Shown here piece after piece: positions 1 to 27,310 of a stretch of DNA of 64,000 nt; position 1 is the first letter of the stretch, and each line of letters begins with the position of its first letter. Below the pieces are notes generated by a model. That model did not search any database. It saw nothing but the letters and a program-made list of their open reading frames with translations, and was not told the DNA's origin. Source of the DNA: Candidatus Gottesmanbacteria bacterium (GTDB taxonomy: Bacteria; Patescibacteriota; Microgenomatia; UBA10105); contig JAHFKJ010000004.1 in NCBI GenBank assembly GCA_023245415.1, positions 2,798-66,797 of the forward strand, in the 5' to 3' direction. Both the position numbers and the translations under genes were made by a program.

Positions 1-525
1 GACATAAGCAAAAAATGTCGCGATACCTACTACTGTCGCAGCCACAAAACCTAAAAGCAGTCCGATAAAATTCTGCATAAATGCTGAGAAAAGGGAGACA
101 CTGGCGGTAAACAAGGCAATTTCAAATCCTTCGCGGATAACCAAAAACACAATGGTCAAAAAGAGCGACATATCAAATTCTTCCTGCTGCAATTTTTGAT
201 GCGCTTTAATGAGCATCTCACCCCGGCCGCGGCGCATCACGTGGTGCAGAGAAAACACGACATAGGCGATAAATAATCCTGAAAAAATGAGCAAGTAACT
301 TTCCAAAAAATCAGCGTTTTGCTCAGTTAAGATAGTGCGCGCGTGATCTCCAAACACATATGTGCCAAAGGCAAGTAAGAGCGAAAAGATGATTCCAATT
401 GTCGCCGCCAGGTAAATTTCCACCTCTTTCTTAAGTTTAAGTTTCCTGGATATCCCTAAAAATACCCCCACAATCAGGAATGCTTCCATAAATTCCCGAA
501 AGGCGATGATAGCGGTCGTTAACAT
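1..525 (-). CDS. FTR1-family high-affinity iron permease (EfeU-like), N-terminal part; gene continues beyond window start
   Basis: Unlisted partial ORF with ATG at 525-523 on minus strand, open to position 1. Translation MLTTAIIAFREFMEAFLIVGVF...REGFEIALFTASV carries two RExxE motifs in hydrophobic segments, the hallmark of FTR1/EfeU permeases. Confidence 0.6.
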   Translation of the reverse strand, partial: MLTTAIIAFREFMEAFLIVGVFLGISRKLKLKKEVEIYLAATIGIIFSLLLAFGTYVFGDHARTILTEQNADFLESYLLIFSGLFIAYVVFSLHHVMRRGRGEMLIKAHQKLQQEEFDMSLFLTIVFLVIREGFEIALFTASVSLFSAFMQNFIGLLLGFVAATVVGIATFFAYV

Positions 526-685
526 TATTGTTCCTTTCCCACTAAAAAACCACCATACATATGGTGGCTATATTTTAAAAATAAGAGCGGGTGCGACCCT
601 AGCAATATTACGAGCACCCTTTATGTAAAAAACAGTGTCATAAGTAATCGTGTGAATATCTACTCTTCTTATACCCTATTCCGAC

Positions 686-2617
686 TTATCCCGTCAAGAG
701 AGTAAATCCCACGATTCCCAGCAACACCAAAAACGGTGCACAGTAGACTAAATTGAGCCAAAAAGCCGGATTGGTGAGAGGCTCAATCACCTTTGACAAC
801 ATCCAGGAAATTCCAGCAATCGGCTTCGTAAACAGAGTTTTTTTATCCGGAAAATAGACAACGATGAAATCTCCTTCAGTATTGACGAGTTGAATTTCCT
901 CAGTGGGGCTGACCTTGTTTAACTCAAATTCAATGGTGTATTCTTTTCCTTTCGAGTCAAGTTGCACCGGAAAACCAAACGGGTGGTATGAACTATCAAG
1001 AATTTGATAGACTTCATAAGTACTTTTTGCGATTTCCTCACCCTGCTCATTTCGCAACCGAACGGCCAGATTCGACTCTACATATTCCGTATTAGGAACA
1101 CCCGAAATTGGTTTTTTACGGACATGAAACTGAATCATGCCCAAGTTATTTACTTTCGCGGTGAATTTTTTTTGTAGGGGTTGACCGGTGATATTTTCAA
1201 TTTGCTTTTGGTTCATATTAAAACGTTGAGCAATAGTAAAAACAGCCAGAGGCGGTTTATAGGCAATGTAGAGTAAAACGAACACCGTTATGGTAAAGGT
1301 TGCAACTAGTCTTAGGGGCGAAAATAATCTCTCTTTCACTTTAATATCATTTAATTTCTTGGTCGCTGTTGTTTTTCGCTGTCTAAAATAGGCAGCTTCA
1401 AAAGAGTGATAGATAAGCCAAGAAAGGACCAGAGATAAAGCAAAAACAGTGATGGTTAAGACGAATGCGCTTATTGGATCATCATGCGAAATAAACTTTT
1501 CGGCAATTCCAATAATAAATGAGTGGGTCAAAAAAAGAGCGTAACTGTACGTGCCAAAAAATACTAAAACCGGCGATCCAAAAAATTTACTACTCAATGT
1601 ATCTGTATCAAGTATTGTCAACAGTAGTAATGCCAAGGGAACGACCCAGATCAACTGATAGTACGGATCAAAGCTTTTCGGAAATATATCCCGGCCAAAT
1701 TCAAGACCAAAAATGATGGTAAACATGATGACAAACCAACTGGCGTGAACAATAAATTTTTTAAATGGCGTCAAAATATGCAAGAAAAACCCAGTTTCAC
1801 TCCCAATGATCACTCCAGTTACAAAATACAACATGTAATGAATTTTGATAATTTCAAAACCTAAGATACGTTCGCCTATCAAATATAGCCCCATAAAAAA
1901 CGGAAAAATGGCTATATAAATGAGTAGGTTTAACCACTTCGATATTCGGGCGCGAACCAGATTAAGAAGCGGAATAACAATAACGGGATACAAAAGATAA
2001 AAAAACATTTCTGCGGTAAGCGCCCAATATACACCATCCATTTGGCCAATATATTTTCCAAAAGATAGTGTGAGCGTCGCATTTATGAGGCCGGAAATAA
2101 GCGTACGCAGCTGCGGATTCCACAACTGCAGAAAAACCGCTGGTGGTACGCGTTGTAAAACAAACGCATACCAAAGAGCAACGCCGAGTTGAAACAACAG
2201 CCAGCCGGGTAAAACCCAGCGTTTCAACCGAGAATGATCCAACAAATTCCAGACTATGCGGGCTGCCAAAATATCGAAGACGACGATGCACAGTGCAATA
2301 AACGGCGATACTTTCCCAAACAACAAAGTAATGGTAAAACTTATGACCATGATCAAAAATGCCGGAAACAGACGCAAATATCTGCGCGTTATAAATGAAA
2401 TAAATTGTGGATTTGGGTAGAGCTTGCCCATGAAAAAGCCGGTCAGCATGAAGAAAATAAAAACGCTAATCGGGCCGGTCCCAAGCAATATATCAAGTAA
2501 AAAATGCGCGCTGCGGGGAATAACGCTGTACCAAATACTCAAGGGTAAATGTGTAAAAATGACAAAGATGATAGCTAGTCCGCGTAAACCATCAAGTGAT
2601 GTGAGCCGCTGTTTCAT
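686..2617 (-). CDS. acyltransferase family 3 (OafA/YrhL-like) membrane protein with extra C-terminal domain
   Basis: 643 aa. N-terminus LDGLRGLAIIFVIFTHL is the typical acyltransferase_3 start; ~10 TM segments; ~250 aa soluble C-terminal extension. Confidence 0.7.
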   Translation of the reverse strand: MKQRLTSLDGLRGLAIIFVIFTHLPLSIWYSVIPRSAHFLLDILLGTGPISVFIFFMLTGFFMGKLYPNPQFISFITRRYLRLFPAFLIMVISFTITLLFGKVSPFIALCIVVFDILAARIVWNLLDHSRLKRWVLPGWLLFQLGVALWYAFVLQRVPPAVFLQLWNPQLRTLISGLINATLTLSFGKYIGQMDGVYWALTAEMFFYLLYPVIVIPLLNLVRARISKWLNLLIYIAIFPFFMGLYLIGERILGFEIIKIHYMLYFVTGVIIGSETGFFLHILTPFKKFIVHASWFVIMFTIIFGLEFGRDIFPKSFDPYYQLIWVVPLALLLLTILDTDTLSSKFFGSPVLVFFGTYSYALFLTHSFIIGIAEKFISHDDPISAFVLTITVFALSLVLSWLIYHSFEAAYFRQRKTTATKKLNDIKVKERLFSPLRLVATFTITVFVLLYIAYKPPLAVFTIAQRFNMNQKQIENITGQPLQKKFTAKVNNLGMIQFHVRKKPISGVPNTEYVESNLAVRLRNEQGEEIAKSTYEVYQILDSSYHPFGFPVQLDSKGKEYTIEFELNKVSPTEEIQLVNTEGDFIVVYFPDKKTLFTKPIAGISWMLSKVIEPLTNPAFWLNLVYCAPFLVLLGIVGFTLLTG

Positions 2618-2718
2618 AGTTTAGTAAACTACTAGTATAATGGATTATGTCGAGATGAATTTAAGAGAATATTTCAATTTTTCCTTGCTGAAAGTTTGAC
2701 CCCACGTATAGAATTTTT

Positions 2719-3552
2719 TTAAATCTGAAAAAAATCGTCCAACTCTCGTGCGTATTCTTTTATCTCCCCGTCTGGAATTGTTGGACTCGCATGTAAGTTT
2801 ACATACCCAGACGTATGAACGATGAACCATAATTCTCCGAATCTTGCAAAATATGTTGATTTTTTTTCTTTAGGGCTTTGCCCAAATTTTTTCATACCGG
2901 AAGGAAAATAAAGCATTTTACTATCAAAAAGACATCCTCGTTTTAAACTGCCAGTTGGTCGAATAAATAATGCCACATGAACTGGAGACCCAATAAAAAC
3001 TAATTTATCTTCCGGAATACCTCCAACGAACCCAGCTAAAGCGGCTGCTAACGTAGCTTCTTCTGCACATTGGAGCGGTGGTAAACCTTTGAAAGAATCT
3101 TGTAGCACCAGACTTTCTTCAAGAGAACCATTTTTACTCCCAACAAGTCGATTAAGGTTCCAATCTATTTGCCATTGCAATCCAACGTCAATCAAGTTAC
3201 GTGCCGAACAAGCTGCATAAACACTGTTAAAAGTGTCACTAATCAATTCAAGCGTATAAGGAACATTAGTAAAATTCAGGTATCCATAAAGCCCGGCTCT
3301 TTCTATGTGAGTCATATGGTGGGTACTATCGTGCAAATACTGCTGAACTGATGTGAGTCGGGTCTTAAGTCCAGCGGTTGGACTACTTTTCTGTAATAGT
3401 TTTTGTGCAAGTTCTTGCACATAAGTATTCGCTGTTTGCATCTGATACAGTTGCTTTATCCACGGCGGATGCGCGCCGAAATCTAAATAATGCAAACTGT
3501 GATCTGGGTATGGGTATGTTTTTACGGGTAATCTTTCTGTCACATAGAGCAT
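2719..3552 (-). CDS. hypothetical protein
   Basis: 277 aa ORF with no motif I can assign; compositionally coding-like. Confidence 0.4.
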   Translation of the reverse strand: MLYVTERLPVKTYPYPDHSLHYLDFGAHPPWIKQLYQMQTANTYVQELAQKLLQKSSPTAGLKTRLTSVQQYLHDSTHHMTHIERAGLYGYLNFTNVPYTLELISDTFNSVYAACSARNLIDVGLQWQIDWNLNRLVGSKNGSLEESLVLQDSFKGLPPLQCAEEATLAAALAGFVGGIPEDKLVFIGSPVHVALFIRPTGSLKRGCLFDSKMLYFPSGMKKFGQSPKEKKSTYFARFGELWFIVHTSGYVNLHASPTIPDGEIKEYARELDDFFQI

Positions 3553-4185
3553 TATATATTAGTATTTGCACTTTAGACGGCACGAAATCACTCAACACAA
3601 TCGGATTTATTGGTCATATAATTACCATATGAATGAAACTGTTTTTGATGAAATCACATCCACACGAAAAAGTGTTTTAATAGTTGGTCGCACAGGTTTC
3701 ATAAGGAGGAAAAACAAGACATGGTAATAATCTAGCTTTCTATACAACCACAAATGAGCGAGAAATTGACCCTGAGATTCTCAAAAAACTTTTTTCAGGC
3801 AAGACGCCAATTAATTTACCATCGCCAAAAGAACTTAAAATTGATGACAAAACCCAATCTGTGAAAGTAGATCACATTGATCAGTTGATTGGACATGATG
3901 TTTACGTTGATTCTCATCAGAACCCCTTTCTCTTGATTCCAATAGAAGAAGTTTATCTGGCAAAACTAAATTAACAATATTCGCTTCCACAATCGACTTT
4001 TATAGAGTCTGATGGCATTCAAACTGAAGTTAAGATCAAATATATGCCGATAAAAAAGAACTTGCGTCCATGCTTGAATTACTGAATGCTCCATACATTA
4101 ATGGAAAAGCATATATTGGCCCGATTTTAGGAACACTGATCGGATCATATATCGAAGCGGTAAAAAAGGTGAAAATCCTGATAGT

Positions 4186-4464
4186 GTGACATACAAGCTT
4201 CAAGAACAAATATTAAAAGAACATTTTACTCCGTTTCCACAAGGTTTCGAATCGAAGAGCGATGTGAGTGATAACGGTAGACTTACCTTTCATCAAAGTA
4301 ATTTTTTTACTTCTCTTTTGCCTCAATTTAAAGAATATACGGATAAAGCATTGAGCCTGCTGCAAGGCGTATCAGGAATAGAAGTACTATCAACTGAGGT
4401 GCCTGCAACTACCTCGGTTTATTTCAAAGCAGGATTGAAGTGTAAAATTAACTTTATTAGTTAA
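4186..4464 (+). CDS. hypothetical small protein
   Basis: 92 aa ORF in an otherwise fragmented region (3.7-4.5 kb). Confidence 0.25.
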   Translation: MTYKLQEQILKEHFTPFPQGFESKSDVSDNGRLTFHQSNFFTSLLPQFKEYTDKALSLLQGVSGIEVLSTEVPATTSVYFKAGLKCKINFIS

Positions 4465-4578
4465 CCTAAGTTACGAAATTAAACATGACGTTTCGGTTCA
4501 TCCCGACAAATATAGCCAAGGATGTATCAAGACGGTACGTCCAGAATCGTATGACACACCCCGGGGGTGGGTTTGTTG

Positions 4579-6534
4579 TTAGTTTGACCGGATGCAGTAA
4601 TTGTAGTCAGGAGATGGCGGAGTAATATTGCTGCAGGCAGAAGTGGAATGCAGTATGGTATCCTGGTCACTCGAATTTTCAAGCTGAGCCCAAAGGATAA
4701 AATTCGTGCGATCTGGCGGGACGACATAGCAATAAACATGTTTTTTGTTACCGCAAGTGGTGGAAATACCAGGTGGCTGCACTCCTCCAGGCAGACTTGG
4801 TTCAGGAGAAGATCCTGACACAGGAGATGGACTAACTTCAGGCATTATAACTTCACACTTATCAGTGACTGTCTGCTGGATAGTATTAATTGTTAAGGAA
4901 ACTGCATTAGTAGTAAATGTTCGCGCCACTACGGCCAGAGATAAATCCTGAACCGGAGTTGTATCAGATGAAACTGAGAGCGTAATATTAATCATATCTG
5001 AACAGTTATCTAAATTCCCATTTGCATCTGTATTAAGGACGAACGCATCATATGAATCCAGTAAACCGGTGTTATTATTCAAAGTGTGATTGCCTGCAGC
5101 CAAAATATGGCCGTTGGGAGTTACGATAACTGATCTAATTTCACCGGTCAAACTAATAGCTTTTCCCCAGATTAGATCACCTTGGTTGTTTAACTTTACT
5201 ATGGCTGGATTGACTCCATTTGCACCGGCTAAAATTACTCCGTCACTAGCACTTGAAAGTACCTCACTAAGTCCTCCTGCACCAAAGAGACCGCTTTCAT
5301 TAATCTTTACAATTTTCGACCAGAGTAAATTACCGCTTAAATCAAATTTAACTATCTGTTTATCATAACCCGAACCGTTATTATAAAGGCCGCCTATGAT
5401 AAAACCATCGCTCAAACTTATTACCGATGGTTCTATTTGAGCTCCCTGTTGAGGTAATAGTTTTGCCCAGACAATATTGCCAGAATCGTCAAATTTCATA
5501 ACTGCAAAATCATTAACGGTACCCGTACTTGCGCTTAATGAAGAAATCGCATGAATTCCGGCTATAATACCGCCGTCAGATGTTTGTGCAAGACTATTTA
5601 TGGATTCTTGTACAGGACTATCAGCTGTTTTAACCCAGACCTGATTTCCAAAACTATCAAATTTTGACAGCAAGGCAGCCCCTCTTGCGACATTATAGGC
5701 AGTGGTTTGCCCACCTATGACAAATCCTCCGTCATTCGTTGCTATCACTGTACTTGCTCTATCACCAGTACAGCTGTAATTCCCTGTGGTTTTTGACCAA
5801 ATTAAATTACCCAGGTTATCTAACTTAGCTATAAATATACCATAGGAACAGATCAATGAACTGCTTAATCCCCCTACCACCACATATCCGCCATCTGTTG
5901 TTTGGGCTATACCTGGGACAGTCAAATACCCGGTTGCATAATCTAAAGTTTTGGACCAAATGACCTTCCCCGCAGCAGTAAACTTGGTAATTAAAAATCT
6001 ACTTTTATGAATACCATAAGAATTGGTTTCATTAATGGTTATAAAACCGCCATCTGAAGTGGGTTTGATTTTATTGCGTGTTTCCTGTTGATCTCCTCCA
6101 TAAAACTTCAAAAAACCAATACTGCCAGTTTCTGTGGCCTTTGCCAAAGAAATAATATTCTGTGGTCTCTCCAAAATCAAGATGGCAGTCATTTTTTCAT
6201 TTAGATTAGCTTGACGCGGATCTTTAGGTTGGGTCCGTAAATATTGATCTAATAATCCCGGTATCCAATTTATACCGCTGTCTGAACTAAACTCTGTAGC
6301 TGTTGAAATCGCGGGTAGCGGTGGAAATGCTCCATGATCCAGGTAATAAACTATCAGCGCGTTGTGTATCCCTTGCAAATTACTCTTACGAACCGCGTCA
6401 TAACCTTTGGCAATTTGAGTATTGACGCGTATTAAAACTGCTATTGCAAGTAAACCCAGTAGCGTGAGTACGATGAGAATCTCGATTAATGTAAACCCTT
6501 GAAGACTATATCGACTGGTTTTATAAAGTTTCAT
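4579..6534 (-). CDS. type IV pilin-like protein (prepilin N-terminus) with beta-propeller-like repeat domain and Pro/Ser-rich C-terminus
   Basis: N-terminus MKLYKTSRYSLQG/FTLIEILIVLTLLG is a class III prepilin leader plus hydrophobic helix. At least 6 copies of a ~45 aa repeat share a G(N/K)xxW(S/A)K motif after D/N-rich segments (GKVIWSKT, GNLIWSKT, GNQVWVKT, GNIVWAKL, GNLLWSKI, GDLIWGKA). Likely start at second Met (6534), not 6549. Confidence 0.7.
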   Translation of the reverse strand: MKLYKTSRYSLQGFTLIEILIVLTLLGLLAIAVLIRVNTQIAKGYDAVRKSNLQGIHNALIVYYLDHGAFPPLPAISTATEFSSDSGINWIPGLLDQYLRTQPKDPRQANLNEKMTAILILERPQNIISLAKATETGSIGFLKFYGGDQQETRNKIKPTSDGGFITINETNSYGIHKSRFLITKFTAAGKVIWSKTLDYATGYLTVPGIAQTTDGGYVVVGGLSSSLICSYGIFIAKLDNLGNLIWSKTTGNYSCTGDRASTVIATNDGGFVIGGQTTAYNVARGAALLSKFDSFGNQVWVKTADSPVQESINSLAQTSDGGIIAGIHAISSLSASTGTVNDFAVMKFDDSGNIVWAKLLPQQGAQIEPSVISLSDGFIIGGLYNNGSGYDKQIVKFDLSGNLLWSKIVKINESGLFGAGGLSEVLSSASDGVILAGANGVNPAIVKLNNQGDLIWGKAISLTGEIRSVIVTPNGHILAAGNHTLNNNTGLLDSYDAFVLNTDANGNLDNCSDMINITLSVSSDTTPVQDLSLAVVARTFTTNAVSLTINTIQQTVTDKCEVIMPEVSPSPVSGSSPEPSLPGGVQPPGISTTCGNKKHVYCYVVPPDRTNFILWAQLENSSDQDTILHSTSACSNITPPSPDYNYCIRSN

Positions 6535-6824
6535 TTTCAAAAATTGCAATATTTTTACTGCATATTTTTGGCTATTTCATGTAATTAGAGTACCATAAAA
6601 AAAGTACTTATGTACAGGTAAAGATGGAAAAATGCTTCTCATGCTCTTAGTACTCTGATGTATAGAATATTTTGTTGAGCTAAAAGAAGAAAAACAGCAG
6701 GAATCACCACAAATCTAACTTTTTTCATGCGTTCAAGTATAGCAAATGTTTAATTTCACTTTTAGAAGGCTCTAGACTAGAATAATATAATCCGGAATAA
6801 CTGACAATATTATATAATAATTGC

Positions 6825-7553
6825 ATGCTTCCAAAATACCTGAATTTTCTAGAAAAACCATCAGAGCAGGAATTTTTTACAAGATTTTCTGCAATTTATA
6901 GCAGAGACAATAACGGCAATGCTGTCGCAATAGAATTAGAGTCTAATAGGTTGTTTAATAAGCTAATAAACAAATTACGTAAAGATGAATTATTTTTCTG
7001 CGATAAAATTCTAATCGGAGAAACCCTGGAAACAGCAATTACAAGATCATTACGCAGCGAACTTGGATTAGAGCTTGTTGATTATTACTTATCAGTATTT
7101 GACCGTGACGTGATAAAAAATAAGAAAGGTATCCCGGTAACGAGATTTTCTGTATTCACATATGTTGACTATGTGAAATTAAAAAATATTGTTATTGCAG
7201 GATACAAAGTTAAGTGGATTGAGAGATTGGATGCTCTAAAATGGTTGAGAGAAACCTATTTAACTACCTTTGGAAAAAGTTCATCGATAAAAAAGGATGG
7301 TATCTTGTCTTTTGTAAAAGATCTGTATACAGCAGGTGCGATTGATATCAATATCTATGAATTATACCGTGAAGAGGAAGCAACAATAGACAATCCACTC
7401 AAACCAGATTATTTAGATATAAGATTGCCAAAAAACAAATCAATGAGAAAAACAATTTTCAGTATATTCAATAAAGGGATTCTGAATTTAACATCAACAC
7501 GTAAAGAAGAAGTAGACTCAGATCAGAAAACTATTCAATATTATTGGAATTAA
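6825..7553 (+). CDS. hypothetical protein (weak, degenerate Nudix-box-like stretch GETLETAITRSLRSELGLE)
   Basis: 242 aa ORF; only a partial Nudix-box resemblance, not conclusive. Confidence 0.35.
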   Translation: MLPKYLNFLEKPSEQEFFTRFSAIYSRDNNGNAVAIELESNRLFNKLINKLRKDELFFCDKILIGETLETAITRSLRSELGLELVDYYLSVFDRDVIKNKKGIPVTRFSVFTYVDYVKLKNIVIAGYKVKWIERLDALKWLRETYLTTFGKSSSIKKDGILSFVKDLYTAGAIDINIYELYREEEATIDNPLKPDYLDIRLPKNKSMRKTIFSIFNKGILNLTSTRKEEVDSDQKTIQYYWN

Positions 7554-7599
7554 GTCGATTTAAGCATCAAAATATGCTATCAAAATAGTCTCAATCGAC

Positions 7600-8097
7600 T
7601 TACTGATGAGAGTATTTGAATCTCCTAATAATCGATTTTTGGTCTGGAGGAAATTTCGCTACTAAATCTTTGATCGCACGTTTTTGAACAGGGTGAATAT
7701 AATTTGGATTTAACTCGTGAAGCGGAATGAGCACGAAATCCCGCTCATGTAAGCGTGAATGTGGAATTTCAAGACTTTCGTTGGCAACAACTAGATCGTC
7801 GTAAAAAAGTATATCGATATCTGTTTCGCGCGGTCCCCAGTGAAAACGTGGAGTTCTGCCAATTCTTTTCTCGATATCTTTGATAAAAACAAGTAGTTCA
7901 TCCGGCGTTAATTTGGTTTATCCCCAAACAACGGTATTGAGAAAATTAGCCTGATTGGTATATCCCACTGCTTTTGATTCATAGATGGAGGCTTTTTGCA
8001 GACGCGGCACTTTTTTAGAAAGAAGTTTGATTGCAGTTTTTATATACTTCTCTCTATTACCAACATTTGATCCCAAGCCTAAAAAAATACTCTTCAT
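7600..8097 (-). pseudogene. folK: folK, 6-hydroxymethyl-7,8-dihydropterin pyrophosphokinase (HPPK), interrupted by an in-frame TAA at 7918-7920
   Basis: ATG at 8097 overlaps the folP TGA as ATGA. N-terminal 59 codons MKSIFLGLGSNVGNREKY...ANFLNTVVWG, then TAA, then 105 in-frame codons TKLTPDELLVFIKDIEKRIGRTPRFHWGPRETDIDILFYDD...; together they align over the full HPPK length (E. coli ...YLNAAVALETSLAPEELL...RWGPRTLDLDIMLF). Confidence 0.6.
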
Positions 8098-8921
8098 ATC
8101 AATTCTTCAAAAACTGAAATAAACTTTTTTGTTTGCAACACATCATGAGTTCTTATGTACGTTGCTCCATTGATAAGGGCAATCGCCGTTTCTGCTAACG
8201 TTGTTTCAAGTCGCTCTAAAGGCGGCACGATTTCCGGCAAATTAAGTTTTACTTTCAAAATCATCCCCAAATGGCTTTTTCGAGAAAGTCCGACCATAAC
8301 CGGACAGTTTAATTTTTGGAATTGACGCAGTTCTTTTATGATGGTTATATTTTGTTGAACTGTTTTTCCAAACCCGATCCCCGGATCTAGAATAAACTGA
8401 CTTTTCTGAATGCCTTTTTTTACGCCTTGTGACATTTGACCCTGGAAAAATTCACCGATATCACCGACTACATTTTTATACTTAATTTCTCCCTTCTGCA
8501 TGGTCCGGGACTTACCTTTAATGTGGTAGATAATAAATTTGCAGTTAAACTTTTTGACAACATCTGCCATTTTAGGATCAAACAACAGCCCTCCTAAGCT
8601 ATTGACCATAGTTACCCCGCGTTCAAGTGCGTTTTGGGCAACAACTGCTTTATTGGTATCGACTGAGATAGTGACTGAGTTTCCGATTTCTTTTCTAATC
8701 GCGTCGATCACGGGAATTACTCGTACCAACTCTTCTTGGGCCGAAACTCCCGTTGAGCCCGGACGTGTCGAATCTCCACCGACATCAATAATGTCTGCCC
8801 CTTCACGCACCATCTCTTTCGCTTGAGCCACTGCTTTATCTATATTTTGATAGTAGATACCGCCATCAGAAAATGAATCGGGGGTAACATTCAAAATACC
8901 CATAAGAAATACTTTTTTCAT
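8094..8921 (-). CDS. folP: dihydropteroate synthase
   Basis: 275 aa; MKKVFLMGILNVTPDSFSDGG... is the classic DHPS N-terminus; pterin-binding domain throughout. Confidence 0.9.
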   Translation of the reverse strand: MKKVFLMGILNVTPDSFSDGGIYYQNIDKAVAQAKEMVREGADIIDVGGDSTRPGSTGVSAQEELVRVIPVIDAIRKEIGNSVTISVDTNKAVVAQNALERGVTMVNSLGGLLFDPKMADVVKKFNCKFIIYHIKGKSRTMQKGEIKYKNVVGDIGEFFQGQMSQGVKKGIQKSQFILDPGIGFGKTVQQNITIIKELRQFQKLNCPVMVGLSRKSHLGMILKVKLNLPEIVPPLERLETTLAETAIALINGATYIRTHDVLQTKKFISVFEELI

Positions 8922-9072
8922 GCGTTAAAGCATAGCAAACACTGTAATCGCGTACATTGTAAAAAATGCAAGTTGTGTGCACACTCTCCAGTATAAAATT
9001 TTGCTTTGATAGGCTCTACGGGCTTTTATATCCAGTATTACCGCCGACACTAAACTTATCTATCTATCCCGG

Positions 9073-9321
9073 TTGTACATTGCGCTCATGGATGAAACAA
9101 ATCACACGTTTTGGCTTGCAGATGCAGTTGCAGAAATTGCCGAATACCGACACTCTATCCTTATGAAATTTATAGCAATGTTAGAACGAATTTTCATAGT
9201 TTCGCGTGTATCACCCCGAGGAAAAACTAAACAATTATTAAAAGATTATGATCTTAGGGACGAACAAGAAGCAAGAGAAAGACTCCCCGGTAAATGTGCT
9301 GAGTGTCATTTTGGGGGATAA
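9073..9321 (+). CDS. hypothetical small protein (C-terminal CxxCH)
   Basis: 82 aa ORF; no assignable family. Confidence 0.25.
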   Translation: MYIALMDETNHTFWLADAVAEIAEYRHSILMKFIAMLERIFIVSRVSPRGKTKQLLKDYDLRDEQEARERLPGKCAECHFGG

Positions 9322-9395
9322 TCACAGAAAACAGAAGGTTGTGCGATTTTGTCTGTTTAGTATTATTGAGGAAATCTTATTCATTGCTTGATTTT

Positions 9396-9665
9396 TTAGG
9401 ACTTAGTTAGCTGAAGCTTTTCCATCAACCACATCCGGGCAAGCGTCGAAACATTGAGCCCTTTATTGCGAGCTACCTTTTCTAATCTATCCTTAATCTC
9501 CTTTTGGACACGCAAGATGAGCGTTTCGTCTCTGGGTTTGTCAAGTTCGAAAACGATATCAACTTCTTTTGTCTCATCTTCAAAGTCAGTAACATTATGG
9601 GTATCCCAAAACTTGGCTTCATCAGTGTAATTTTTAAATTTAGGAATTCTACTTTTCTTTTTCAT
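9396..9665 (-). CDS. brnA: BrnA-family antitoxin (RHH C-terminus)
   Basis: 89 aa; FWDTHNVTDFED motif typical of BrnA; C-terminal ribbon-helix-helix-like segment; located immediately downstream of brnT as in known BrnTA operons. Confidence 0.75.
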   Translation of the reverse strand: MKKKSRIPKFKNYTDEAKFWDTHNVTDFEDETKEVDIVFELDKPRDETLILRVQKEIKDRLEKVARNKGLNVSTLARMWLMEKLQLTKS

Positions 9666-9924
9666 TTAAATCTCTCCTTTCCTTTTTACTCGCATCTCTT
9701 GCGGTAACTAAATAATATTTCCCCATTGTTTCTTTTCTAAATACCATTGTAATAATCCTTGAACCAACTCTTCCCACTACTAGATATCTTCCTGTATGAG
9801 TTTTCCTATGATAAAGAAAGTCTTTTCCGATTTTCTCGACCTCAACTCTAGTAACATTATGTTTTTTAATATGCTCAAGATTAGTCTCATCAAAGACCAA
9901 AAAACGAATAACGATCTTAGTCAT
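9649..9924 (-). CDS. brnT: BrnT-family toxin (DUF497 ribonuclease toxin)
   Basis: 91 aa; FLVFDETNLEHIKKHNVTRVEVEKI matches the BrnT F-WD-x-K-N-x-KHGV-F-E motif; overlaps the downstream antitoxin gene by 17 nt. Confidence 0.75.
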   Translation of the reverse strand: MTKIVIRFLVFDETNLEHIKKHNVTRVEVEKIGKDFLYHRKTHTGRYLVVGRVGSRIITMVFRKETMGKYYLVTARDASKKERRDLNEKEK

Positions 9925-9957
9925 ATTGTATTATACTGTATTACTAATGCCAAATAT

Positions 9958-10584
9958 TTAACTGTTTACATGTAGATCTACAAACTGTAATAAGCTTTCT
10001 TTTGCTTTATGCATAATCATTTCATAATGAAACGGGAGGGCGTTTTCAAAATCATATTTCAGCAATTTTTTACAGCTTACAAAACGCTCTTTTAAATCAC
10101 CATAAAAGTCACCAGCGCCTTTCAAGAAATCATTTATCTCACCATTGGGCAGTCCGCCAAACGTATCACCGGTAAATAATGCTTTAGAAGTTGATTCACA
10201 TACACAAATACTACCTGGTGTATGACCCGGAGTTAAAATCACTTCGAGGTTAGGAGCCAGTTTTGGCGGTCGAACAAATAATACATCAGGTCGCATCCGC
10301 AGCCACTCACTATTTTTATCAGCTTGATGCAGGTATACTTTGAGGCCAATCTTTTGCTGCCAAATTGTGCCGTCACTGATGCCACATGAACCATGACTAA
10401 GAAGTGCAAACATTGGCTTTTTGAAAGAAGATAAATATTTTTCAATCTCTTTGGAGTATGAAGGCAAATCAATCAGCACTAGCTTTTGCGCAGTATCAAC
10501 CACATAAGTACCAACTAATTCACTATAAAAATACTGATCCGCAAATCGGGATATTTTTGCATTAATCTTCTTTACTAATGTCAT
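9958..10584 (-). CDS. MBL-fold metallo-hydrolase
   Basis: 208 aa; LLSHGSCGISDG and TPGHTPGS motifs of the metallo-beta-lactamase fold. Confidence 0.7.
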   Translation of the reverse strand: MTLVKKINAKISRFADQYFYSELVGTYVVDTAQKLVLIDLPSYSKEIEKYLSSFKKPMFALLSHGSCGISDGTIWQQKIGLKVYLHQADKNSEWLRMRPDVLFVRPPKLAPNLEVILTPGHTPGSICVCESTSKALFTGDTFGGLPNGEINDFLKGAGDFYGDLKERFVSCKKLLKYDFENALPFHYEMIMHKAKESLLQFVDLHVNS

Positions 10585-11137
10585 GGGATTTTAAAGCAAT
10601 ATTAAGTTGGATTAATTCTTCAACCAAGCGCAAACAGCGCTCTTTAATTTCTGCATTAACTAATTCATATTCCGTTCCTCTATCCGCGTAATCATCATTT
10701 GCCGTCCCAATTTGAGACTGTAACGCATAACCATACATTGCCCGGACAACTAAACGTAAATGCTCACACGGATGCGCACAATTGCGGATTGAGCTGGAGT
10801 TACTCACCAAGGCTACAGGTTTATTACGTAAAGCGTCATAGTATAAATTATCCAAGGCATTTTTAAGGACGCCGGAATAAGACCCATGATACAGTGGTGA
10901 ACCAAGGACAAAGCCATCAGAGTTAGTAACTAATGTAACGAAATTTTTTACCAATTGGTTGGGAGTTAGTAGCGGGTTTTTATGAAACTCAGGCAGAGCA
11001 ATCGATAAGGGTTTTTCCCGTAAATCCCAAAAAATTGTTTCCATTCCCTTCTTTTGCAACAATTTTTCTATATGTCTTAACAAAATACGGGTATGGGATT
11101 TGTTAGCAATACTTCCGCAAACCAGCATTATTTTCAT
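10562..11137 (-). CDS. NAD(P)H-dependent FMN reductase / flavodoxin-like oxidoreductase
   Basis: 191 aa; MKIMLVCGSIANKSHTRIL N-terminus typical of FMN_red family. Confidence 0.7.
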   Translation of the reverse strand: MKIMLVCGSIANKSHTRILLRHIEKLLQKKGMETIFWDLREKPLSIALPEFHKNPLLTPNQLVKNFVTLVTNSDGFVLGSPLYHGSYSGVLKNALDNLYYDALRNKPVALVSNSSSIRNCAHPCEHLRLVVRAMYGYALQSQIGTANDDYADRGTEYELVNAEIKERCLRLVEELIQLNIALKSHDISKED

Positions 11138-11522
11138 AATTAATTTATAAAGGGTTAAGTTTCAATCCCCTATTCTATCAAAAAAAACTAACCTGCACCC
11201 AAATTAGTATGAACCTACCTGGAATGTCAAACATTCTTTGCCTGCAGGCAAGCTTACATACTGGAGGTGAGTTTTGATTTATATTTGTTTTTTTTAATTA
11301 ATACCCAAATCGTGGCGAGAGATCCGATAGGAATAATAATCCAACCGATTACGGAAATTGGAACGAACGAAAAAAGCAGTATTCCAAAGTACATATCCGA
11401 TAAACCATAGTCCAAAACCCCTGCCTATCGTATCTTTGAGTATTTGCATATTCATGAATTGAATCTTGTCTATATATTATCCTTATACAAAGTGAAGTCA
11501 AATAATAATACAGGGTAAAAGT

Positions 11523-11846
11523 TCAGATGTTTTGTTTTTTAAGGCGTTTCTCAAGTTCATCCATAGTCTTTAAAAAATTCTGTTCAATATCTATCTCATA
11601 TTTTTCAGAGAGAACTAAAATACTCCACAAACAGTCTGCGAGTTCGTGAGCTAACTTTTCATCTATATTTTTAACCTCACGAAGGCCTTCTTTTGCCATG
11701 ACTAGCTTCATTAAATCCCCAATATCTCCAACCAGTCCTTCCATCAGATTAAGATTGCTCCACTCTTTTCCGGTCTTTCTTTTTTCATGCTCTGAGTATT
11801 TAGTACGAATTTCTAACGCTTTTTGAGTAAGTTGCTTTATATCCAT
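11523..11846 (-). CDS. MazG-like nucleotide pyrophosphohydrolase (small single-domain)
   Basis: 107 aa; helical protein with EEx2E-like pattern (LMEGLVGDIGDLMKLVMAKEGLRE...HELADCLWSILVLSEKYEIDIEQ) typical of MazG/HisE NTP-PPase domain. Confidence 0.6.
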   Translation of the reverse strand: MDIKQLTQKALEIRTKYSEHEKRKTGKEWSNLNLMEGLVGDIGDLMKLVMAKEGLREVKNIDEKLAHELADCLWSILVLSEKYEIDIEQNFLKTMDELEKRLKKQNI

Positions 11847-12008
11847 ACAGAGAATTTACCATGAAAGATTCAATACTCTAATTATATCATTAAAATAAAG
11901 TTAAAAATGTTGTAACTGCATGGGGTATTCTTCCAAATTACTATCACTATGGTAGGTCTAGTTCATCAGATGTGTGGCTTGAAACTGAAACAAAGGTATA
12001 ATAGATCC

Positions 12009-12473
12009 ATGCAAAAAGCACCACGACAAATCATGTTTACTAATGAAGGCTATCAAAAAGTCAAAGATGAGTTTGAGCGGCTAACCCAGAAACGGAAAGA
12101 GGCAATTACGAGTCTGCAGCGGGCTCGGGAAATGGGAGACTTGAGTGAAAATGGCGCTTATAAAGCCGCCAGGTTTACTCTCTCAGATATCGACCGGCAA
12201 CTGAGGTGGCTCAAATATCAGATCCACTTTGGCGTCGTTACTAAGGCAACTCATACTGGCAGGATCGGATTCGGTAATACGGTAACTATCAAAAATGATA
12301 AAGGAAGCATCGAGTTCATGCTTGTTGACGGGTTTGAATCAAATCCTAGGGATAAAAAACTTTCAGTTCATTCTCCCATTGGCCGGGCAGTCGTGGGTAA
12401 AAAAGTGGGACAAACAGTGGTTGTCACTGCCCCGAAAGGTACGACTGAATATATGATTACCAGTCTTGAGTAA
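12009..12473 (+). CDS. greA: transcription elongation factor GreA
   Basis: REMGDLSENGAYKAAR matches the GreA/GreB coiled-coil finger motif; C-terminal FKBP-like domain; likely start MQKAP at 12009 gives the GreA length of ~154 aa (table ORF begins 11949). Confidence 0.85.
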   Translation: MQKAPRQIMFTNEGYQKVKDEFERLTQKRKEAITSLQRAREMGDLSENGAYKAARFTLSDIDRQLRWLKYQIHFGVVTKATHTGRIGFGNTVTIKNDKGSIEFMLVDGFESNPRDKKLSVHSPIGRAVVGKKVGQTVVVTAPKGTTEYMITSLE

Positions 12474-12492
12474 GAAATGGCAATTAATTTTT

Positions 12493-13020
12493 TCAATCAC
12501 CGCAGGTAGTACTTTTTTTAGCCATTTCGGTAATATATTCTTTTGTCACTGCTTCCTTAAGATGTACCGGATCGTTACTTCCGATAAACACCACCAGACT
12601 ATCATTGGGTTGGATGGGTAAATTTAAAAATGAAGGTATAATTTTTTCCCCTATATAACCTGTGGTGATTTTTTCATCAATGGGAAAATTGATATTGGTA
12701 AATAAATCTTTCCAGGTTGCTCCCCTTGCTTCAACATGTACCAAATCACCTACATTGTTATGCAGATGCGCTTTCTCCAGTTGCGGGTTTTCATGTTCCT
12801 CGTCTTCCTTACCATTTACTGTACACGGTTTGGTGTACATATATTTAATATCTGAAAAATCAATTTTCCGGTTATTTTGAAAAACTATAAATCCGCCGTG
12901 ATAGTGAACTTTAGGTTTCAGAATAAGCTTTTTAAATGCGAAAAAAATTCCGCCTCCTATAACTACGCCAACAATTAGAATAATGACAATGGTATGTTTA
13001 TTAATATGAGCTTTCAGCAT
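12493..13020 (-). CDS. hypothetical membrane-anchored protein
   Basis: 175 aa, single N-terminal TM, ends with CGD. Confidence 0.4.
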   Translation of the reverse strand: MLKAHINKHTIVIILIVGVVIGGGIFFAFKKLILKPKVHYHGGFIVFQNNRKIDFSDIKYMYTKPCTVNGKEDEEHENPQLEKAHLHNNVGDLVHVEARGATWKDLFTNINFPIDEKITTGYIGEKIIPSFLNLPIQPNDSLVVFIGSNDPVHLKEAVTKEYITEMAKKSTTCGD

Positions 13021-13099
13021 ATTTATAAATATTTATCTATTTAAAACTCGAGCATCAATCCATTTATAGCATATTTGCTTTCCTAAATAATTTATTTGA

Positions 13100-14314
13100 C
13101 TACTCATACCGCAGCGCGTCGATCGGAGAAAGTTTGGCTGCACGCCGGGCTGGATAAATTCCAAACACCACTCCAACGATCGTTGATACACCAACTGCCA
13201 GAAGTATCGCACTGGGCTGCAAAACAAAAGGAATAGGCAAAAATCGTGTGGCCAAAAATGATAATGATATACCCAGAATTATACCCACAATACCGCCTGA
13301 GACCGTCAAAACTATTGACTCAATTAGAAACTGCATCAAAATATCTTTTCTTTTAGCGCCAATCGCTTTGAGAAGTCCGATTTCTTTGGTGCGTTCGGTA
13401 ACGGTCACCAGCATAATATTCATGATGCCAATTCCTCCAACGACCAACGAGATTGCCGCAATTCCCGCCAGCATTCCAGTCAGAAGTCCGGTAACATTAT
13501 TTACGATCGAGAGCGCATCTTTTGAATTTCTAACGGTAAAGTCTGCAAGTACGGGATCGGTAATTTTATGTTGATCAAGTAAAAAAGCAATAATCTGCTC
13601 CTGTGTTTCGTCAACTTTTTTAGCATCGGTAGCTTGAGCTAATATTGCCTGAACTGAATCTTGGCCAAGAAAAACCTTCATCGCCGTAGTAGCTGGCACA
13701 TAGACTGTTTCATCAGGATTTGTAAATCCAACGCTACCCTTTGCTTTTGTTACTCCAATTATTCGAAAAGATCGTGATTTTATAGTAATTGTTTCACCTA
13801 TCGGATGAGCATCCTCCCCAAACAAATCAGCAACCACATCAGGTCCTAAAACTGCTACCCGACTATATCCGGATTCATCTTCCGGGCTTATAAATTCTCC
13901 CTGATTCATTTCCAAGCTGTTAATATTTGCATAGGTGGCACTAATCCCCAGTATCGAGGCATTTTTATTCTGTCCGTTGGTTACAACTTCAGCCTGAGTG
14001 GTAACTTGAGCCGAAACATCTCCAAGGTCCGGCATGCGTGTTTTATCGGCAAGAGCTAGCATATCAGCGTATTTCAAAGAGTTCGACGCCGAAGGTGGAC
14101 GACCGGGTATTTGTTTACCAGGTACGATAAATATCAGATTTGCTCCCAGTGATGAAACTTGTGAAGTGATTGAACTGCTCGCGCCTTGTCCCAAAGAAAT
14201 AATGAGAATAACTGAGGCAATACCAATAATGATACCAAGCATCGTTAGTATAGTCCGGAGTATATTTCCCCGTAGGGCGCGTATAGCAGATCTGATAATT
14301 TGGACGTAATTCAT
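13100..14314 (-). CDS. ABC transporter permease, MacB/FtsX family
   Basis: 404 aa; N-terminal TM, large periplasmic domain, C-terminal FtsX-like 3 TM segments. Confidence 0.85.
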   Translation of the reverse strand: MNYVQIIRSAIRALRGNILRTILTMLGIIIGIASVILIISLGQGASSSITSQVSSLGANLIFIVPGKQIPGRPPSASNSLKYADMLALADKTRMPDLGDVSAQVTTQAEVVTNGQNKNASILGISATYANINSLEMNQGEFISPEDESGYSRVAVLGPDVVADLFGEDAHPIGETITIKSRSFRIIGVTKAKGSVGFTNPDETVYVPATTAMKVFLGQDSVQAILAQATDAKKVDETQEQIIAFLLDQHKITDPVLADFTVRNSKDALSIVNNVTGLLTGMLAGIAAISLVVGGIGIMNIMLVTVTERTKEIGLLKAIGAKRKDILMQFLIESIVLTVSGGIVGIILGISLSFLATRFLPIPFVLQPSAILLAVGVSTIVGVVFGIYPARRAAKLSPIDALRYE

Positions 14315-14315
14315 A

Positions 14316-15029
14316 TTATTTTTTGGCGATAAATCGATTATTTTCTTTATCGGAAATAATCAAACCGTCTTTTAAGAGAATGATACGATTGGCAAACGCG
14401 GCAATATCCGACTCATGAGTAATCACGATAATCGTTCTGCCTTTTTTATTGAGATCTTGTAAAAATGTCATAATTTCATGAGACGTTTTACTGTCTAAGT
14501 TTCCGGTGGGTTCATCAGCCAAAATCATGGACGGATCCATAACTATTGCTCGGGCGATAGCCACACGCTGGATTTGTCCGCCGGAAATATGATTTGATAA
14601 ATTGGAAGCTTTATCCTCCAAGTGTACGAGGCGCAAACATTCAAACGCCCGCTCCGTTTGTTCATTTTGAGGCACCCGGCCATACATCATGGGTCTAATA
14701 ACATTATCGAGCACTGTCGTTCTGGGAAGAAGATTGAAGGCTTGAAAAACAAACCCTATTTCCTGATTTCTGATTTCTGCCAGTTGATCTTCGGAATATG
14801 CACTGATGTTTTTATTATTGAGAGTATATGTCCCCGAAGTTGGGGTATCTAACGCCCCGATAATATGCATAGTTGTGGATTTGCCGCTTCCCGATGGACC
14901 CATGATGGCTACAAATTCACCCTTGTAGACTTCAAGCGAAATCCCCTTAAGCGCCTGACATTCTGCGCTACCTGTAATATAACTTTTCGTAATATTCCGA
15001 AGCGATATAATAGGTTTTTTGTCGATCAT
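14316..15029 (-). CDS. ABC transporter ATP-binding protein (MacB/LolD type)
   Basis: Walker [10 protein letters not shown], signature [14 protein letters not shown], Walker [12 protein letters not shown]. Confidence 0.9.
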
Positions 15030-15047
15030 ACATCATACTTATGACAA

Positions 15048-16331
15048 CTAATTTATTGAGCTCGTAACTATCCAGTCGCCAACAGAAACACCTGCAGTAA
15101 CTTCAGTTCGGGTAGTACCTTTTAGACCGGTTTTGACCGGTATATAGTGAAAAGGAAGCATTTTACCGGCTTTATTTTTTACCATGCTATCTTTATTTTC
15201 CCCTGCCACTATCACTGCTTTACCTCCTTTATAGGGCTTAATCCCGGCGTTAGGAACAGTTAGCACATTCTCGTGTTTTGCAGTTTCTATAGATACAGTA
15301 ACTGTCATCTCCGTCTTTATATTCGCGTCTGGATTATTTAAATAAATCGTTGCATTATAAGTAATAACTCCATTCGTGTTCGTTCCAGCTGTGTCAATCG
15401 TTGCGATATGGCCGTTAAATTTTTTCTCGCGAAACGCATCAAACGTAATTGTGGCAGTTTGACCAATTTTCACTTTGTCAACATCTACCTCATTAAAAGC
15501 TATTTTGATCACTGTTTTTGAAATATCTCCCAGAATTACGAGTGTTGGAACCCCAGATACTGCTGTTGCAAGTGATGAACTGACCGTTACTCTATCTCCC
15601 AGAGAAGCTGAAAAATTTGCGATCACCCCTGGGACTGGAGCGGTAATTACCACATTCTGGGTTGCCTGATATGCGAGCCAAGTTGAGTTAACAGACGCTT
15701 TGGCAGCAGCAATCGCACTATCTGCTTCAAGAAATTTTTTCTCAGTCGCTGAAAAATCCTTCCTGGCTTGGGTAAGGGCGGCATCAATAGTGTCTTTTTC
15801 CAGTTGCGTATATTCAAGATGAGTATCCGGATTGATATTGTGGTTGTTTTTATAAATAACTGCCTCTTGAGCTGACAAAACTTTTTGTTGCGATGTCCAC
15901 ATCGAGGCATCAGCTGAAAGTTTACTTTGTTCCGCGGTTTTTTGAGTACTCACCGCACTTTGATAAGCTGTATAAGCTGTGGCTTGATCTTGAGTAGTTG
16001 CCGTACTTTTTACCTTAAAAAGGCTTTCTCCACGATCGATCGCATCACCATTTTTTACATATACTTCTTCAATATATCCTGTGCTTGATGAATACACATC
16101 AAATCTTCCCGAAGAAGTTACATTTCCGCTTTCTGAAACCACATCAACAACCGTATCCAGAGTTACCGGTTCAGTCGTATATTGTGGGCCTTTTTTTCGC
16201 AGCGGTGAGGCAAGAATAAGAAATACCGCAAGTACAACCATAATAATAGCTAATTTCTTTTTCTTGGACGCTTTCAGAAATGAGTTCTTAAGAGTAATAA
16301 TTTTTTTAAAAAATGGACGAATAATTTTCAT
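15048..16331 (-). CDS. HlyD/MacA-family periplasmic adaptor (efflux membrane fusion protein)
   Basis: 427 aa; N-terminal TM, coiled-coil and beta-barrel segments; position upstream of MacB-like ABC pair. Confidence 0.8.
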   Translation of the reverse strand: MKIIRPFFKKIITLKNSFLKASKKKKLAIIMVVLAVFLILASPLRKKGPQYTTEPVTLDTVVDVVSESGNVTSSGRFDVYSSSTGYIEEVYVKNGDAIDRGESLFKVKSTATTQDQATAYTAYQSAVSTQKTAEQSKLSADASMWTSQQKVLSAQEAVIYKNNHNINPDTHLEYTQLEKDTIDAALTQARKDFSATEKKFLEADSAIAAAKASVNSTWLAYQATQNVVITAPVPGVIANFSASLGDRVTVSSSLATAVSGVPTLVILGDISKTVIKIAFNEVDVDKVKIGQTATITFDAFREKKFNGHIATIDTAGTNTNGVITYNATIYLNNPDANIKTEMTVTVSIETAKHENVLTVPNAGIKPYKGGKAVIVAGENKDSMVKNKAGKMLPFHYIPVKTGLKGTTRTEVTAGVSVGDWIVTSSIN

Positions 16332-16336
16332 AACAG

Positions 16337-16780
16337 TTAATTTCGTTGTTCTTTTTGTAACGTATCAATAAGATTGATATGAATCCTGACAAGCTCCCGC
16401 AAGTCTTGATCGGGAATTTTTGAAAAAATTTTACTCATCTTATCCATGAATTTCTTTTTTAAGTTTATAATTTCCCGTTCTCCTGCAAGAGTAATAGTAA
16501 GCCTGACTATCCGTCTATCTTCCTGGTCATCCATCCGTTTTACGAGTTTGGCTTTTACCAGCCGCTCGATAAGCTGTGTGGCTGATGATTTTGACAGCTT
16601 TAATTGTCCAGCAATATCCCCAACCGTACTTAGCTTTTTCTCTATCAAAAATTTGAGTGCTGAAAATTGCATAAACGTTGCAATTCGTTCATCATGCGAT
16701 TCTTGAGTTTGCGCATCAAGAAATTTGTGCAACTGGCCCATGGTGTTGAATAGCTGTTCTATATAGTGCTGCTTATTCAT
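16337..16780 (-). CDS. MarR-family transcriptional regulator
   Basis: 147 aa winged-helix regulator (FSALKFLIEKKLSTVGDIAGQLKLSKSSATQLIERLVKAKLVKR); first gene of efflux operon. Confidence 0.8.
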   Translation of the reverse strand: MNKQHYIEQLFNTMGQLHKFLDAQTQESHDERIATFMQFSALKFLIEKKLSTVGDIAGQLKLSKSSATQLIERLVKAKLVKRMDDQEDRRIVRLTITLAGEREIINLKKKFMDKMSKIFSKIPDQDLRELVRIHINLIDTLQKEQRN

Positions 16781-16920
16781 AAGTTTTATTTATCTGTTAA
16801 ATAGTTTAACACATTAACTATATTTGATCAAGAAGTCCAAGATGCTGGTGGATAAACTCATTTGAACGATAAAAAGATGCGGATGGAAATATGATCCAAC
16901 TGATTCAGTTGACTGAAAAT

Positions 16921-17287
16921 TTATTTCTTATTAAATTTGGTTACCTTATGCACTTCACCCATTTTGTCGTATGTGGTCCACTTTCCTACTTGTTTGCCCT
17001 TTGCAAAATAACCCGAGCGCATTTTCATATTATTTCCGCCTGCCGGCGAGGCAGGTTTTCTATACCATTCCCAATATCCGTCGCACCTTCCTGTGTGCTT
17101 CTTTCTGATTTGTAATGATATTTCCCAAAGCCCACGATGCTTGTCCCCCACATGACTGCTTTTTCTCCGGTGATTTTATGAAACAACTCAAGAAGCACTA
17201 AGCTGTCACGCCGTTTTTCTTTCGGTTCGACCGTGTTGAGAAAATCTTCTGCTTTTGGGTAGTAGGTTTTGTTTTTAACTCGGACAT
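16921..17287 (-). pseudogene. frameshifted paralog of the DUF1801-like gene at 25156-25572 (N-terminal ~190 nt ~75% identical), C-terminal part diverged (MORN-like tail)
   Basis: Nucleotides 17100-17290 align to 25381-25572. Reading from ATG 17287 gives MSELKTKPTTQKQK, and a +1 shift is needed to continue EDFLNTVEPKEKRRDSLVLLELFHKITGEKAVMWGTSIVGFGKYHYKSE. Confidence 0.45.
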
Positions 17288-17334
17288 AATAGTTTAAGTC
17301 AACACCAGGATTGGCAATATATATTTAGATCTTC

Positions 17335-17862
17335 CTAACCACTTATTACAAAGGCACGAATTGGAGATCCGTCACTTTCTTTAATTTTCAGCGGTAGTCC
17401 GTAAAAAGTAAATGAAGCTGGTAATTGGTCGGTATTGGCTAAATTTTCGAAGGAAACAATATCATTTTCACAGAGTAGTTTTTCTACTGGGATATCAAAC
17501 TCGAACTGTGCTGAGAGCCCAACAAATTTAGGTGGAGTTTTTACCAGTTGCCGTACCAATTTCATATCTATATTTTGTGAGTGAAATACTACACCTATAT
17601 CTGTATCAAAAGTCATGTTTGAACTATAAAGAACAGCTTTGCCGAAAAAACGTTCGAGGGTAAGATCATCGAGCGTTTTTCCATTTTGAGCCATATGGTA
17701 GGGCGCATTTACATGTGTGCCTATATGAGTCGTAAGTGTGAGTTGTCGTAAATTCCAACCCTCTTTTTCAAGCGTGTGGATTTCTTGAATACTCACCGCT
17801 GGGTCACCTGGATATACCGGCATATTGTTGTAGAGTGTTTGAGTTAAGTCAATAATATGCAT
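17335..17862 (-). CDS. cyclase-family protein (arylformamidase/kynurenine formamidase-like)
   Basis: 175 aa; HIGTHVNAPYH matches the HxGTHxDAPxH motif of PF04199 putative cyclases. Confidence 0.75.
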   Translation of the reverse strand: MHIIDLTQTLYNNMPVYPGDPAVSIQEIHTLEKEGWNLRQLTLTTHIGTHVNAPYHMAQNGKTLDDLTLERFFGKAVLYSSNMTFDTDIGVVFHSQNIDMKLVRQLVKTPPKFVGLSAQFEFDIPVEKLLCENDIVSFENLANTDQLPASFTFYGLPLKIKESDGSPIRAFVISG

Positions 17863-25572: not shown

Positions 25573-25754
25573 AAAGCAATTATATCAACGGCTCAATTGT
25601 AGTAAAAATTGGACACCTCAGAAACTTTTGTTTTTACTTTTGAATAATGGATATAAAAATAATTTTAGAAAATTTACACGAAAGCTCAAAACTTAATAAA
25701 AATTATTCTTCAATATAATTTTGATTACAAGTCTAAAGTGATCTTATCTTAACT

Positions 25755-26426: not shown

Positions 26427-26487
26427 ATCAAAATATCTAACATTTAATGGCTCCACCTGATGGAAAATACCAGAACTTATTTCCTAA

Positions 26488-27045: not shown

Positions 27046-27079
27046 GATGAAATTATAACAGAAGGCTCGAACAGTCCAA

Positions 27080-27310
27080 TTACTTATCAAAAACTATTTT
27101 TCCGTTTTTACATATAACTTGTATCCCTGAATTTGTTTGAAAACGTTCCTTGTTTTTCAACTCGATGAACCCTTTACCATCATCATAAAGGCACCCATTA
27201 CCTATTAACCAGTTATTCCCTAAAAAAACCAATACAAGAAATGCTACAAAGAATAATACAAGTAATGTACTTAGTATTAGAAGTACATGTTTTCGATTTT
27301 TTTTCACCAC
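27080..27310 (-). CDS. small hypothetical membrane protein
   Basis: 76 aa, one TM; the gene sits between ~30-bp direct repeats (27050-27085 and 27311-27342) that occur only once upstream of the paralogous locus at 37321. Confidence 0.4.
   Translation of the reverse strand: MVKKNRKHVLLILSTLLVLFFVAFLVLVFLGNNWLIGNGCLYDDGKGFIELKNKERFQTNSGIQVICKNGKIVFDK

Follow-up and report, generated by a model that had tools for sequence, protein, structure and literature searches.

A premature in-frame stop codon in folK beside an intact folP in a Candidatus Gottesmanbacteria genome: a probable recent pseudogene

Introduction

A folK gene that carries an in-frame TAA, with its reading frame continuing unchanged to a normal end, raises the question of whether the stop is an error of the sequence, a codon that the cell can decode, or the mark of a gene that has lately been inactivated. 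Such a gene lies directly downstream of folP in a stretch of 64,000 nucleotides from Candidatus Gottesmanbacteria, the whole of which is called here the window. The window is chromosomal, as indicated by the presence of rpoD and dnaG. Its RpoD shares 88-90% identity with proteins named Candidatus Gottesmanbacteria, which places the uncultured host among the Gottesmanbacteria-like Patescibacteria (CPR). In a comparative study of the folate pathway, folKP are regarded as signature genes of the pathway, and pseudogenes of folate synthesis are called "not uncommon" in parasites with reduced genomes (de Crecy-Lagard et al. 2007, PMC1971073). A search of the literature on folate in CPR bacteria found nothing on the topic. 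A preliminary description of the locus, made from the DNA letters, offered a nonsense change, a sequencing error, a recent pseudogenisation and, less likely, a read-through site as readings of the stop. Here, these readings are weighed together with several others, and we consider the locus to be, most probably, a recent nonsense pseudogene of folK that is fixed or dominant in the sampled population.

Organization of the folP-folK locus

Both genes are encoded on the minus strand, which had been left out of the preliminary description. The upstream gene, folP (8094-8921, minus strand), is an intact dihydropteroate synthase (DHPS) gene of 275 aa that ends in TGA; its product matches Pfam Pterin_bind over the entire profile (1-244 of 244, E=4.5e-81) and the DHPS model TIGR01496 with 294.6 bits (cut-off 162.6). 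Its stop codon overlaps the start codon of folK in the tetranucleotide ATGA (8094-8097, minus strand, read directly as gatATGAag), an arrangement typical of translational coupling. The 5′ part of folK (7921-8097, minus strand) comprises 59 sense codons, corresponding to HPPK residues 1-59, whose translation MKSIFLGLGSNVGNREKY...FLNTVVWG is followed by TAA (7918-7920, minus strand) with A as the next base. The frame then proceeds without change for 105 codons (7603-7917, minus strand) up to the normal TAA stop (7600-7602, minus strand), so that the joined reading across the premature stop is VVWG-X-TKLTPDELLVFIK, where X is the stop and the next residues are TKLTPDELL. The overlap, the 59 codons, the stop and the 105 same-frame codons are thus all as first described once they are placed on the minus strand. 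By alignment, the TAA falls on the E of ...VALETSL... in E. coli HPPK, in agreement with the earlier claim that it occupies the position of a sense residue.

Identity of the interrupted gene

For comparison with known families, the two parts of folK were joined into a query of 165 residues with X at the stop. This query matches Pfam HPPK (PF01288) with 123.4 bits (cut-off 25.7) over profile positions 1-116 of 116 (E=8.2e-36) and NCBIfam TIGR01498 with 136.1 bits (cut-off 54.1) over positions 2-128 of 128. It also aligns to the S. aureus HPPK of entry 3QBC, unbroken across the stop, with E=4.4e-30. The full-profile match and the unbroken alignment place the identification far beyond chance, and the two pieces do form one HPPK of normal length, as had been proposed. 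An alignment of 24 sequences, which includes E. coli FolK and 22 homologues from databases, has 21 invariant columns. The joined reading retains every one of them, and 15 of the 21 lie 3′ of the stop, where conserved HPPK motifs had already been noticed. The conserved residues include N54, R81, W87, R90, D93, D95, H113, R119, and F121, which we take to be the equivalents of E. coli N55, R82, W89, R92, D95, D97, H115, R121, and F123, respectively. Six of them, R81, R90, D93, D95, H113, and R119, presumably correspond to the Mg-ATP site and catalytic loop 3 of E. coli HPPK; all six are encoded 3′ of the stop and are missing from the 59-residue fragment.

The intact frame downstream of the stop is the one observation that would favour a split enzyme, whose two pieces would be produced independently and then associate. 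There is no in-frame ATG, GTG, or TTG from the stop to position 7734, a distance of 60 codons, which excludes a separately initiated C-terminal piece. The first in-frame start codon 3′ of the stop is the GTG at 7734, which would yield the last 44 residues only, and neither piece alone contains the full set of conserved residues. A split HPPK is therefore hardly conceivable. By its sequence, the gene is a bona fide folK in every respect except for an uninterrupted open reading frame, and is best filed as a folK pseudogene.

Reproducibility of the stop codon in independent assemblies

The TAA could be an artefact of sequencing or assembly in a genome that really carries a sense codon. MAG consensus sequences do contain errors, and one homopolymer indel exists between the window and another assembly. 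The same TAA is present at the DNA level in three other assemblies. A 612-nt contig of ENA ERZ27280021 is identical to the window at 612 of 612 positions, the TAA included. A 23.6-kb contig of ENA ERZ27276474 covers window positions 1-17553 without a mismatch and with a single indel in a run of A, and has the same TAA and the same 59-aa call. The third, a Logan contig of SRR14366766, represents a second haplotype that differs by 2 SNPs in 1191 nt and keeps the TAA. Both SNPs are nonsynonymous, changing V to A in folP and producing K20N in folK. At the level of predicted products, a 2.7-kb contig of ENA ERZ27301951 carries folP and, directly after it, the 59-aa call, and the 59-aa product with K20N occurs in SRR14366766 and in ENA ERZ27297570; the exact 59-aa product of the window is called in both NCBI and ENA assemblies. 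Several samples, two haplotypes and two assemblers have accordingly yielded the same stop.

These data speak against an artefact, since the same base is present in the DNA of at least three other assemblies, one of which is a distinct haplotype from another run and another assembler, and two further assemblies call the same 59-residue product. In addition, the change is a substitution located outside any homopolymer run, and an intact version was found in none of the assemblies of the collection. The sequencing error that the preliminary description had kept as an alternative is thus made unlikely by the two ENA assemblies and the second haplotype, and we regard an artefact as very unlikely. 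As for the indel, it lies at window position 305 (contig position 3482 of ERZ27276474), where A6 stands against A5 as the sole difference over 17.5 kb; the stretch is non-coding, and the indel likely reflects the assembly or a strain difference.

An intact allele of the lineage was sought with a repaired folK query in a collection of 5.8 billion proteins, and none was found above 63% identity. JGI metagenome contigs, scanned with a pattern in which the stop codon was masked, gave no match either. A minority intact folK allele in the population is possible. All the assemblies may come from one study site (runs SRR143667xx, analyses ERZ272-273xxxxx), in which case the TAA allele has been demonstrated for one population only.

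The codon at the stop position in related genes

The nearest relatives of folK by BLASTP are found on short contigs of GCA_009712145.1 (63% identity) and SRR22388086 (Logan, 59% identity), whose folP genes are both 64% identical to that of the window. Each contig has the same 4-nt ATGA overlap between folP and folK. The folK genes are intact, with 167 aa in GCA_009712145.1 and 161 aa in SRR22388086, and the codon at the position of the stop is GAG (Glu) in the former and AAA (Lys) in the latter. The comparison with orthologs that had been proposed as a check hence gives sense codons in both nearest genes. Among 120 homologues, the position is occupied by K (42), Y (22), E (15), F (10), N (8), Q (6), and others. 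Residues whose codons are one base from TAA, namely K, Y, E, or Q, are found in 85 of the 120. The position is, on the basis of this alignment, a variable and tolerant site. Together with the GAG and AAA codons of the relatives, this composition bears out the description of the lesion as a single-nucleotide nonsense change.

More distant relatives of folP provide information on the history of the cassette. No folP between 64% and 100% identity to that of the window was found in the protein collection, and in GTDB representative genomes its identity nowhere exceeds 58%. Relatives at 43-58% identity occur in MAGs that carry the labels Patescibacteria, Saccharibacteria, Micrarchaeota, 'Gammaproteobacteria', Deltaproteobacteria, and Myxococcota. 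Among the NCBIfam models, the ordinary DHPS ones fit folP best, and the Sul4 model NF033502 comes next with 216 bits against a cut-off of 600. A Sul4-type, sulfonamide-resistant DHPS was rejected since the score is below this cut-off and the protein passes the ordinary DHPS equivalog. The Sul4 match, the scattered relatives of folP and the non-syntenic flanks of the GCA_009712145.1 locus give a hint that the folP-folK cassette moves between genomes. In a further Patescibacteria MAG (JAZJXT010000006.1), an ORF of 117 aa at 6855-7208, of the size of folB, lies between folP and folK and is possibly folB (dihydroneopterin aldolase). An ORF at this place is missing in the window and in its two closest relatives.

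Age of the lesion

A profile HMM was built from 120 intact homologues, with the query left out. The joined folK scores 245 bits, compared to 207-268 bits for the 120 homologues. The part before the stop obtains 83.1 bits (homologue median 83.2) and the part after it 146.7 bits (homologue range 122-164). The lack of further damage in the remaining 105 codons suggests that the mutation is recent, and the recent pseudogenisation envisaged in the preliminary description is in line with the intact relatives, the reproducible TAA and the undamaged 3′ frame. The undamaged 3′ part fits continued selection on a read-through product equally well. As two haplotypes share the TAA, the stop predates their split or has been spread by recombination. 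The haplotypes differ by only the two nonsynonymous SNPs described above, which might hint at a relaxed constraint on folP and folK but are far too few to show it.

Decoding of the stop codon

If the TAA were decoded, a trace of full-length HPPK could be produced through near-cognate Gln, Lys, Glu, or Tyr tRNAs or a suppressor tRNA encoded elsewhere, and this trace might suffice for a cell that grows slowly and needs very little folate. Such functional read-through would account for the 105 codons 3′ of the stop, which are undamaged and score like those of intact HPPKs, and it would be helped by the tolerant nature of the position and be compatible with an allele common to two haplotypes. Most of the data on stop codon use and local context point the other way. 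In the 69 window ORFs of at least 80 aa, TAA is the commonest stop (38), followed by TAG (17) and TGA (14), and of the four-base terminator contexts in the window, TAAA, that of the folK stop, is used most often (13 of 61 genes). UAA is, moreover, the least leaky stop codon in bacteria. Folding of the RNA around the folK stop was no better than that of shuffled sequences (z=-0.22), and no Rfam element was found at gathering or permissive thresholds. A scan for promoters and terminators gave no recoding signal. Scans of ~67 kb, made up of the window and a further 3 kb of the ERZ27276474 contig, detected no tRNA gene. Finally, the stop is common only to strains that are at least 99.8% identical, while the next relatives have sense codons. 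Read-through had been ranked as the less likely reading from the outset, and it keeps that place with no suppressor tRNA, RNA structure, or weak context having been found in the regions scanned; we judge it unlikely.

A reassignment of TAA to an amino acid in the lineage, that is, an alternative genetic code, is a separate matter. Some CPR lineages recode UGA, which lends the idea a precedent of a kind. All three stops are used in the window, the TAA-ended ORFs that were tested have end-to-end Pfam matches, and in-frame TAA is found in no other window gene; TAA is a true terminator in this organism. With more than half of the ORFs ending in TAA, reassignment is extremely improbable.

The rest of the 64-kb window was also surveyed for same-frame ORF pairs split by one stop, and no other interrupted gene was found. 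The only other convincing pair, at 47090-47656 (plus strand), was rejected as it consists of two separate toxin-antitoxin genes, RelE/ParE-like by eye. An arylformamidase/cyclase-like ORF at 17335-17862 (minus strand) was also considered as a broken gene and rejected, being a continuous protein of 175 aa with a plausible C-terminus. Its residues 4-81 match a Pfam profile at positions 1-62 of 142, and its residues 3-79 match TIGR03035 at positions 2-79 of 206, so that the family match is limited to the first ~80 residues, and the ORF probably represents a short variant rather than a disrupted gene. Fragments at 16921-17151 had no family match.

Other features of the window

Five paralogues of RibD_C (PF01872) are located within 12 kb, at 25755-26456, 26488-27090, 35093-35710, and 36776-37336 on the minus strand and at 33517-34107 on the plus strand. 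A second version of the block at 25750-27090, with 81-93% nucleotide identity, is located at 35082-37336. Members of the PF01872 family are often annotated as "dihydrofolate reductase family protein", and NCBIfam gave the five paralogues no specific name. Were these proteins to reduce pterins or folates for salvage, they would be in keeping with a loss of de novo synthesis.

Several repeats are dispersed over the same region. A 67-nt intergenic repeat with the core GGACGGTCCTCAAACTAACCGTCACAACAATCTAAA is present in four copies (27980-28046, 34085-34151, 36253-36319, and 45617-45683), which are 67-84% identical to the reference copy and have no Rfam match. A 123-nt direct repeat of 81% identity (37861-37983 and 39085-39207) flanks a MerR-like gene at 38265-39023, and an A-rich repeat of 45 nt has three copies in the vicinity (27335-27379, 37364-37408, and 37818-37862). 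A GIY-YIG nuclease gene of 162 aa (45791-46279, minus strand) has a shorter second copy of 88 aa (41239-41505, minus strand) in which the domain is still matched. The two copies share a 266-nt repeat that is 93% identical, and they possibly represent a homing-endonuclease-like element that has been duplicated or is degrading. Toxin-antitoxin pairs number four in the 64 kb; besides the pair at 47090-47656, these are a BrnT/CopG pair adjoining folP (9396-9924, minus strand), a PIN/Phd pair (29124-29865, minus strand), and a MazE/PIN pair (63153-63838, plus strand).

Origin and consequences of the interruption

The events behind a recent nonsense pseudogene of folK are probably as follows. A single-base nonsense mutation at codon 60, most simply from GAA or AAA to TAA, would have created the stop. 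Ribosomes finishing folP would restart at the overlapping ATG of folK, translate 59 codons, and be released at an ordinary TAAA terminator. The 59-residue fragment, lacking nearly all the catalytic and ATP-binding residues, would be inactive, and HPPK activity would be lost apart from a trace made by spontaneous read-through. The intact DHPS encoded by folP would be left without its pyrophosphorylated pterin substrate, and the organism, like most CPR bacteria, presumably depends on folate or its products from neighbours. The preliminary description had recommended a search for folB, folE, and folC elsewhere in the genome. The part of this check that was carried out covers the 64-kb window, in which none of the three was found.

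The same allele might instead be kept because it is useful, either as a protective loss of function or as a leaky stop by which HPPK is restricted to trace amounts. In the protective variant, which we mention as a possibility, a folate-scavenging cell would be spared the conversion of environmental sulfonamides into toxic pterin adducts by folP and folK. An adaptive stop, if true, would explain why two haplotypes share the TAA and why the downstream frame and folP are undamaged; we nevertheless hold an adaptive stop to be quite unlikely.

With a recent nonsense pseudogene as the preferred reading, the appropriate annotation of the locus is folK pseudogene, rather than a 59-aa "HPPK" or an intact gene. 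De novo dihydropteroate synthesis should not be credited to this Gottesmanbacteria-like MAG in metabolic reconstructions. The case provides a clean example of the first step in the loss of a pathway in CPR bacteria, with one nonsense codon, an intact folP, and the allele present in several samples, and it illustrates that independent public assemblies allow an in-frame stop of a MAG to be checked even where reads are not at hand. Beyond annotation, it is of little importance.

Comparison with known systems

The joined gene resembles HPPK/FolK (PF01288, TIGR01498) in its full profile, in the invariant columns, which include the DxD pair, the Arg and His residues and W87, in its normal length, and in its location directly downstream of folP. 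It differs from these enzymes in the frame broken by TAA at codon 60, with a predicted product of 59 residues. The overlapping folP-folK cassettes of Patescibacteria share the gene order and the 4-nt ATGA overlap with the window, but in GCA_009712145.1 and SRR22388086 folK is intact and the flanking genes are non-syntenic with those of the window.

Programmed read-through and natural suppression likewise show an in-frame stop followed by an intact frame. The folK of the window differs from such systems, as its stop is unconserved in diverged relatives and the context is not weak, and neither a stimulatory structure around the stop nor a suppressor tRNA in the ~67 kb was seen. The locus was, on the first three of these grounds, rejected as a programmed recoding site.

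The closest parallel is offered by genome-reduced intracellular bacteria (PMC1971073), in which a gene of de novo folate synthesis has been lost from a reduced genome with probable dependence on others. Compared to those cases, the window belongs to a free-standing CPR lineage and would capture the very first step of the process, a single nonsense codon in a folK that has no other decay and whose partner folP is still intact. Gene inactivation is ordinary in reduced genomes, and the folK of the window is a fresh instance of this well-known event.
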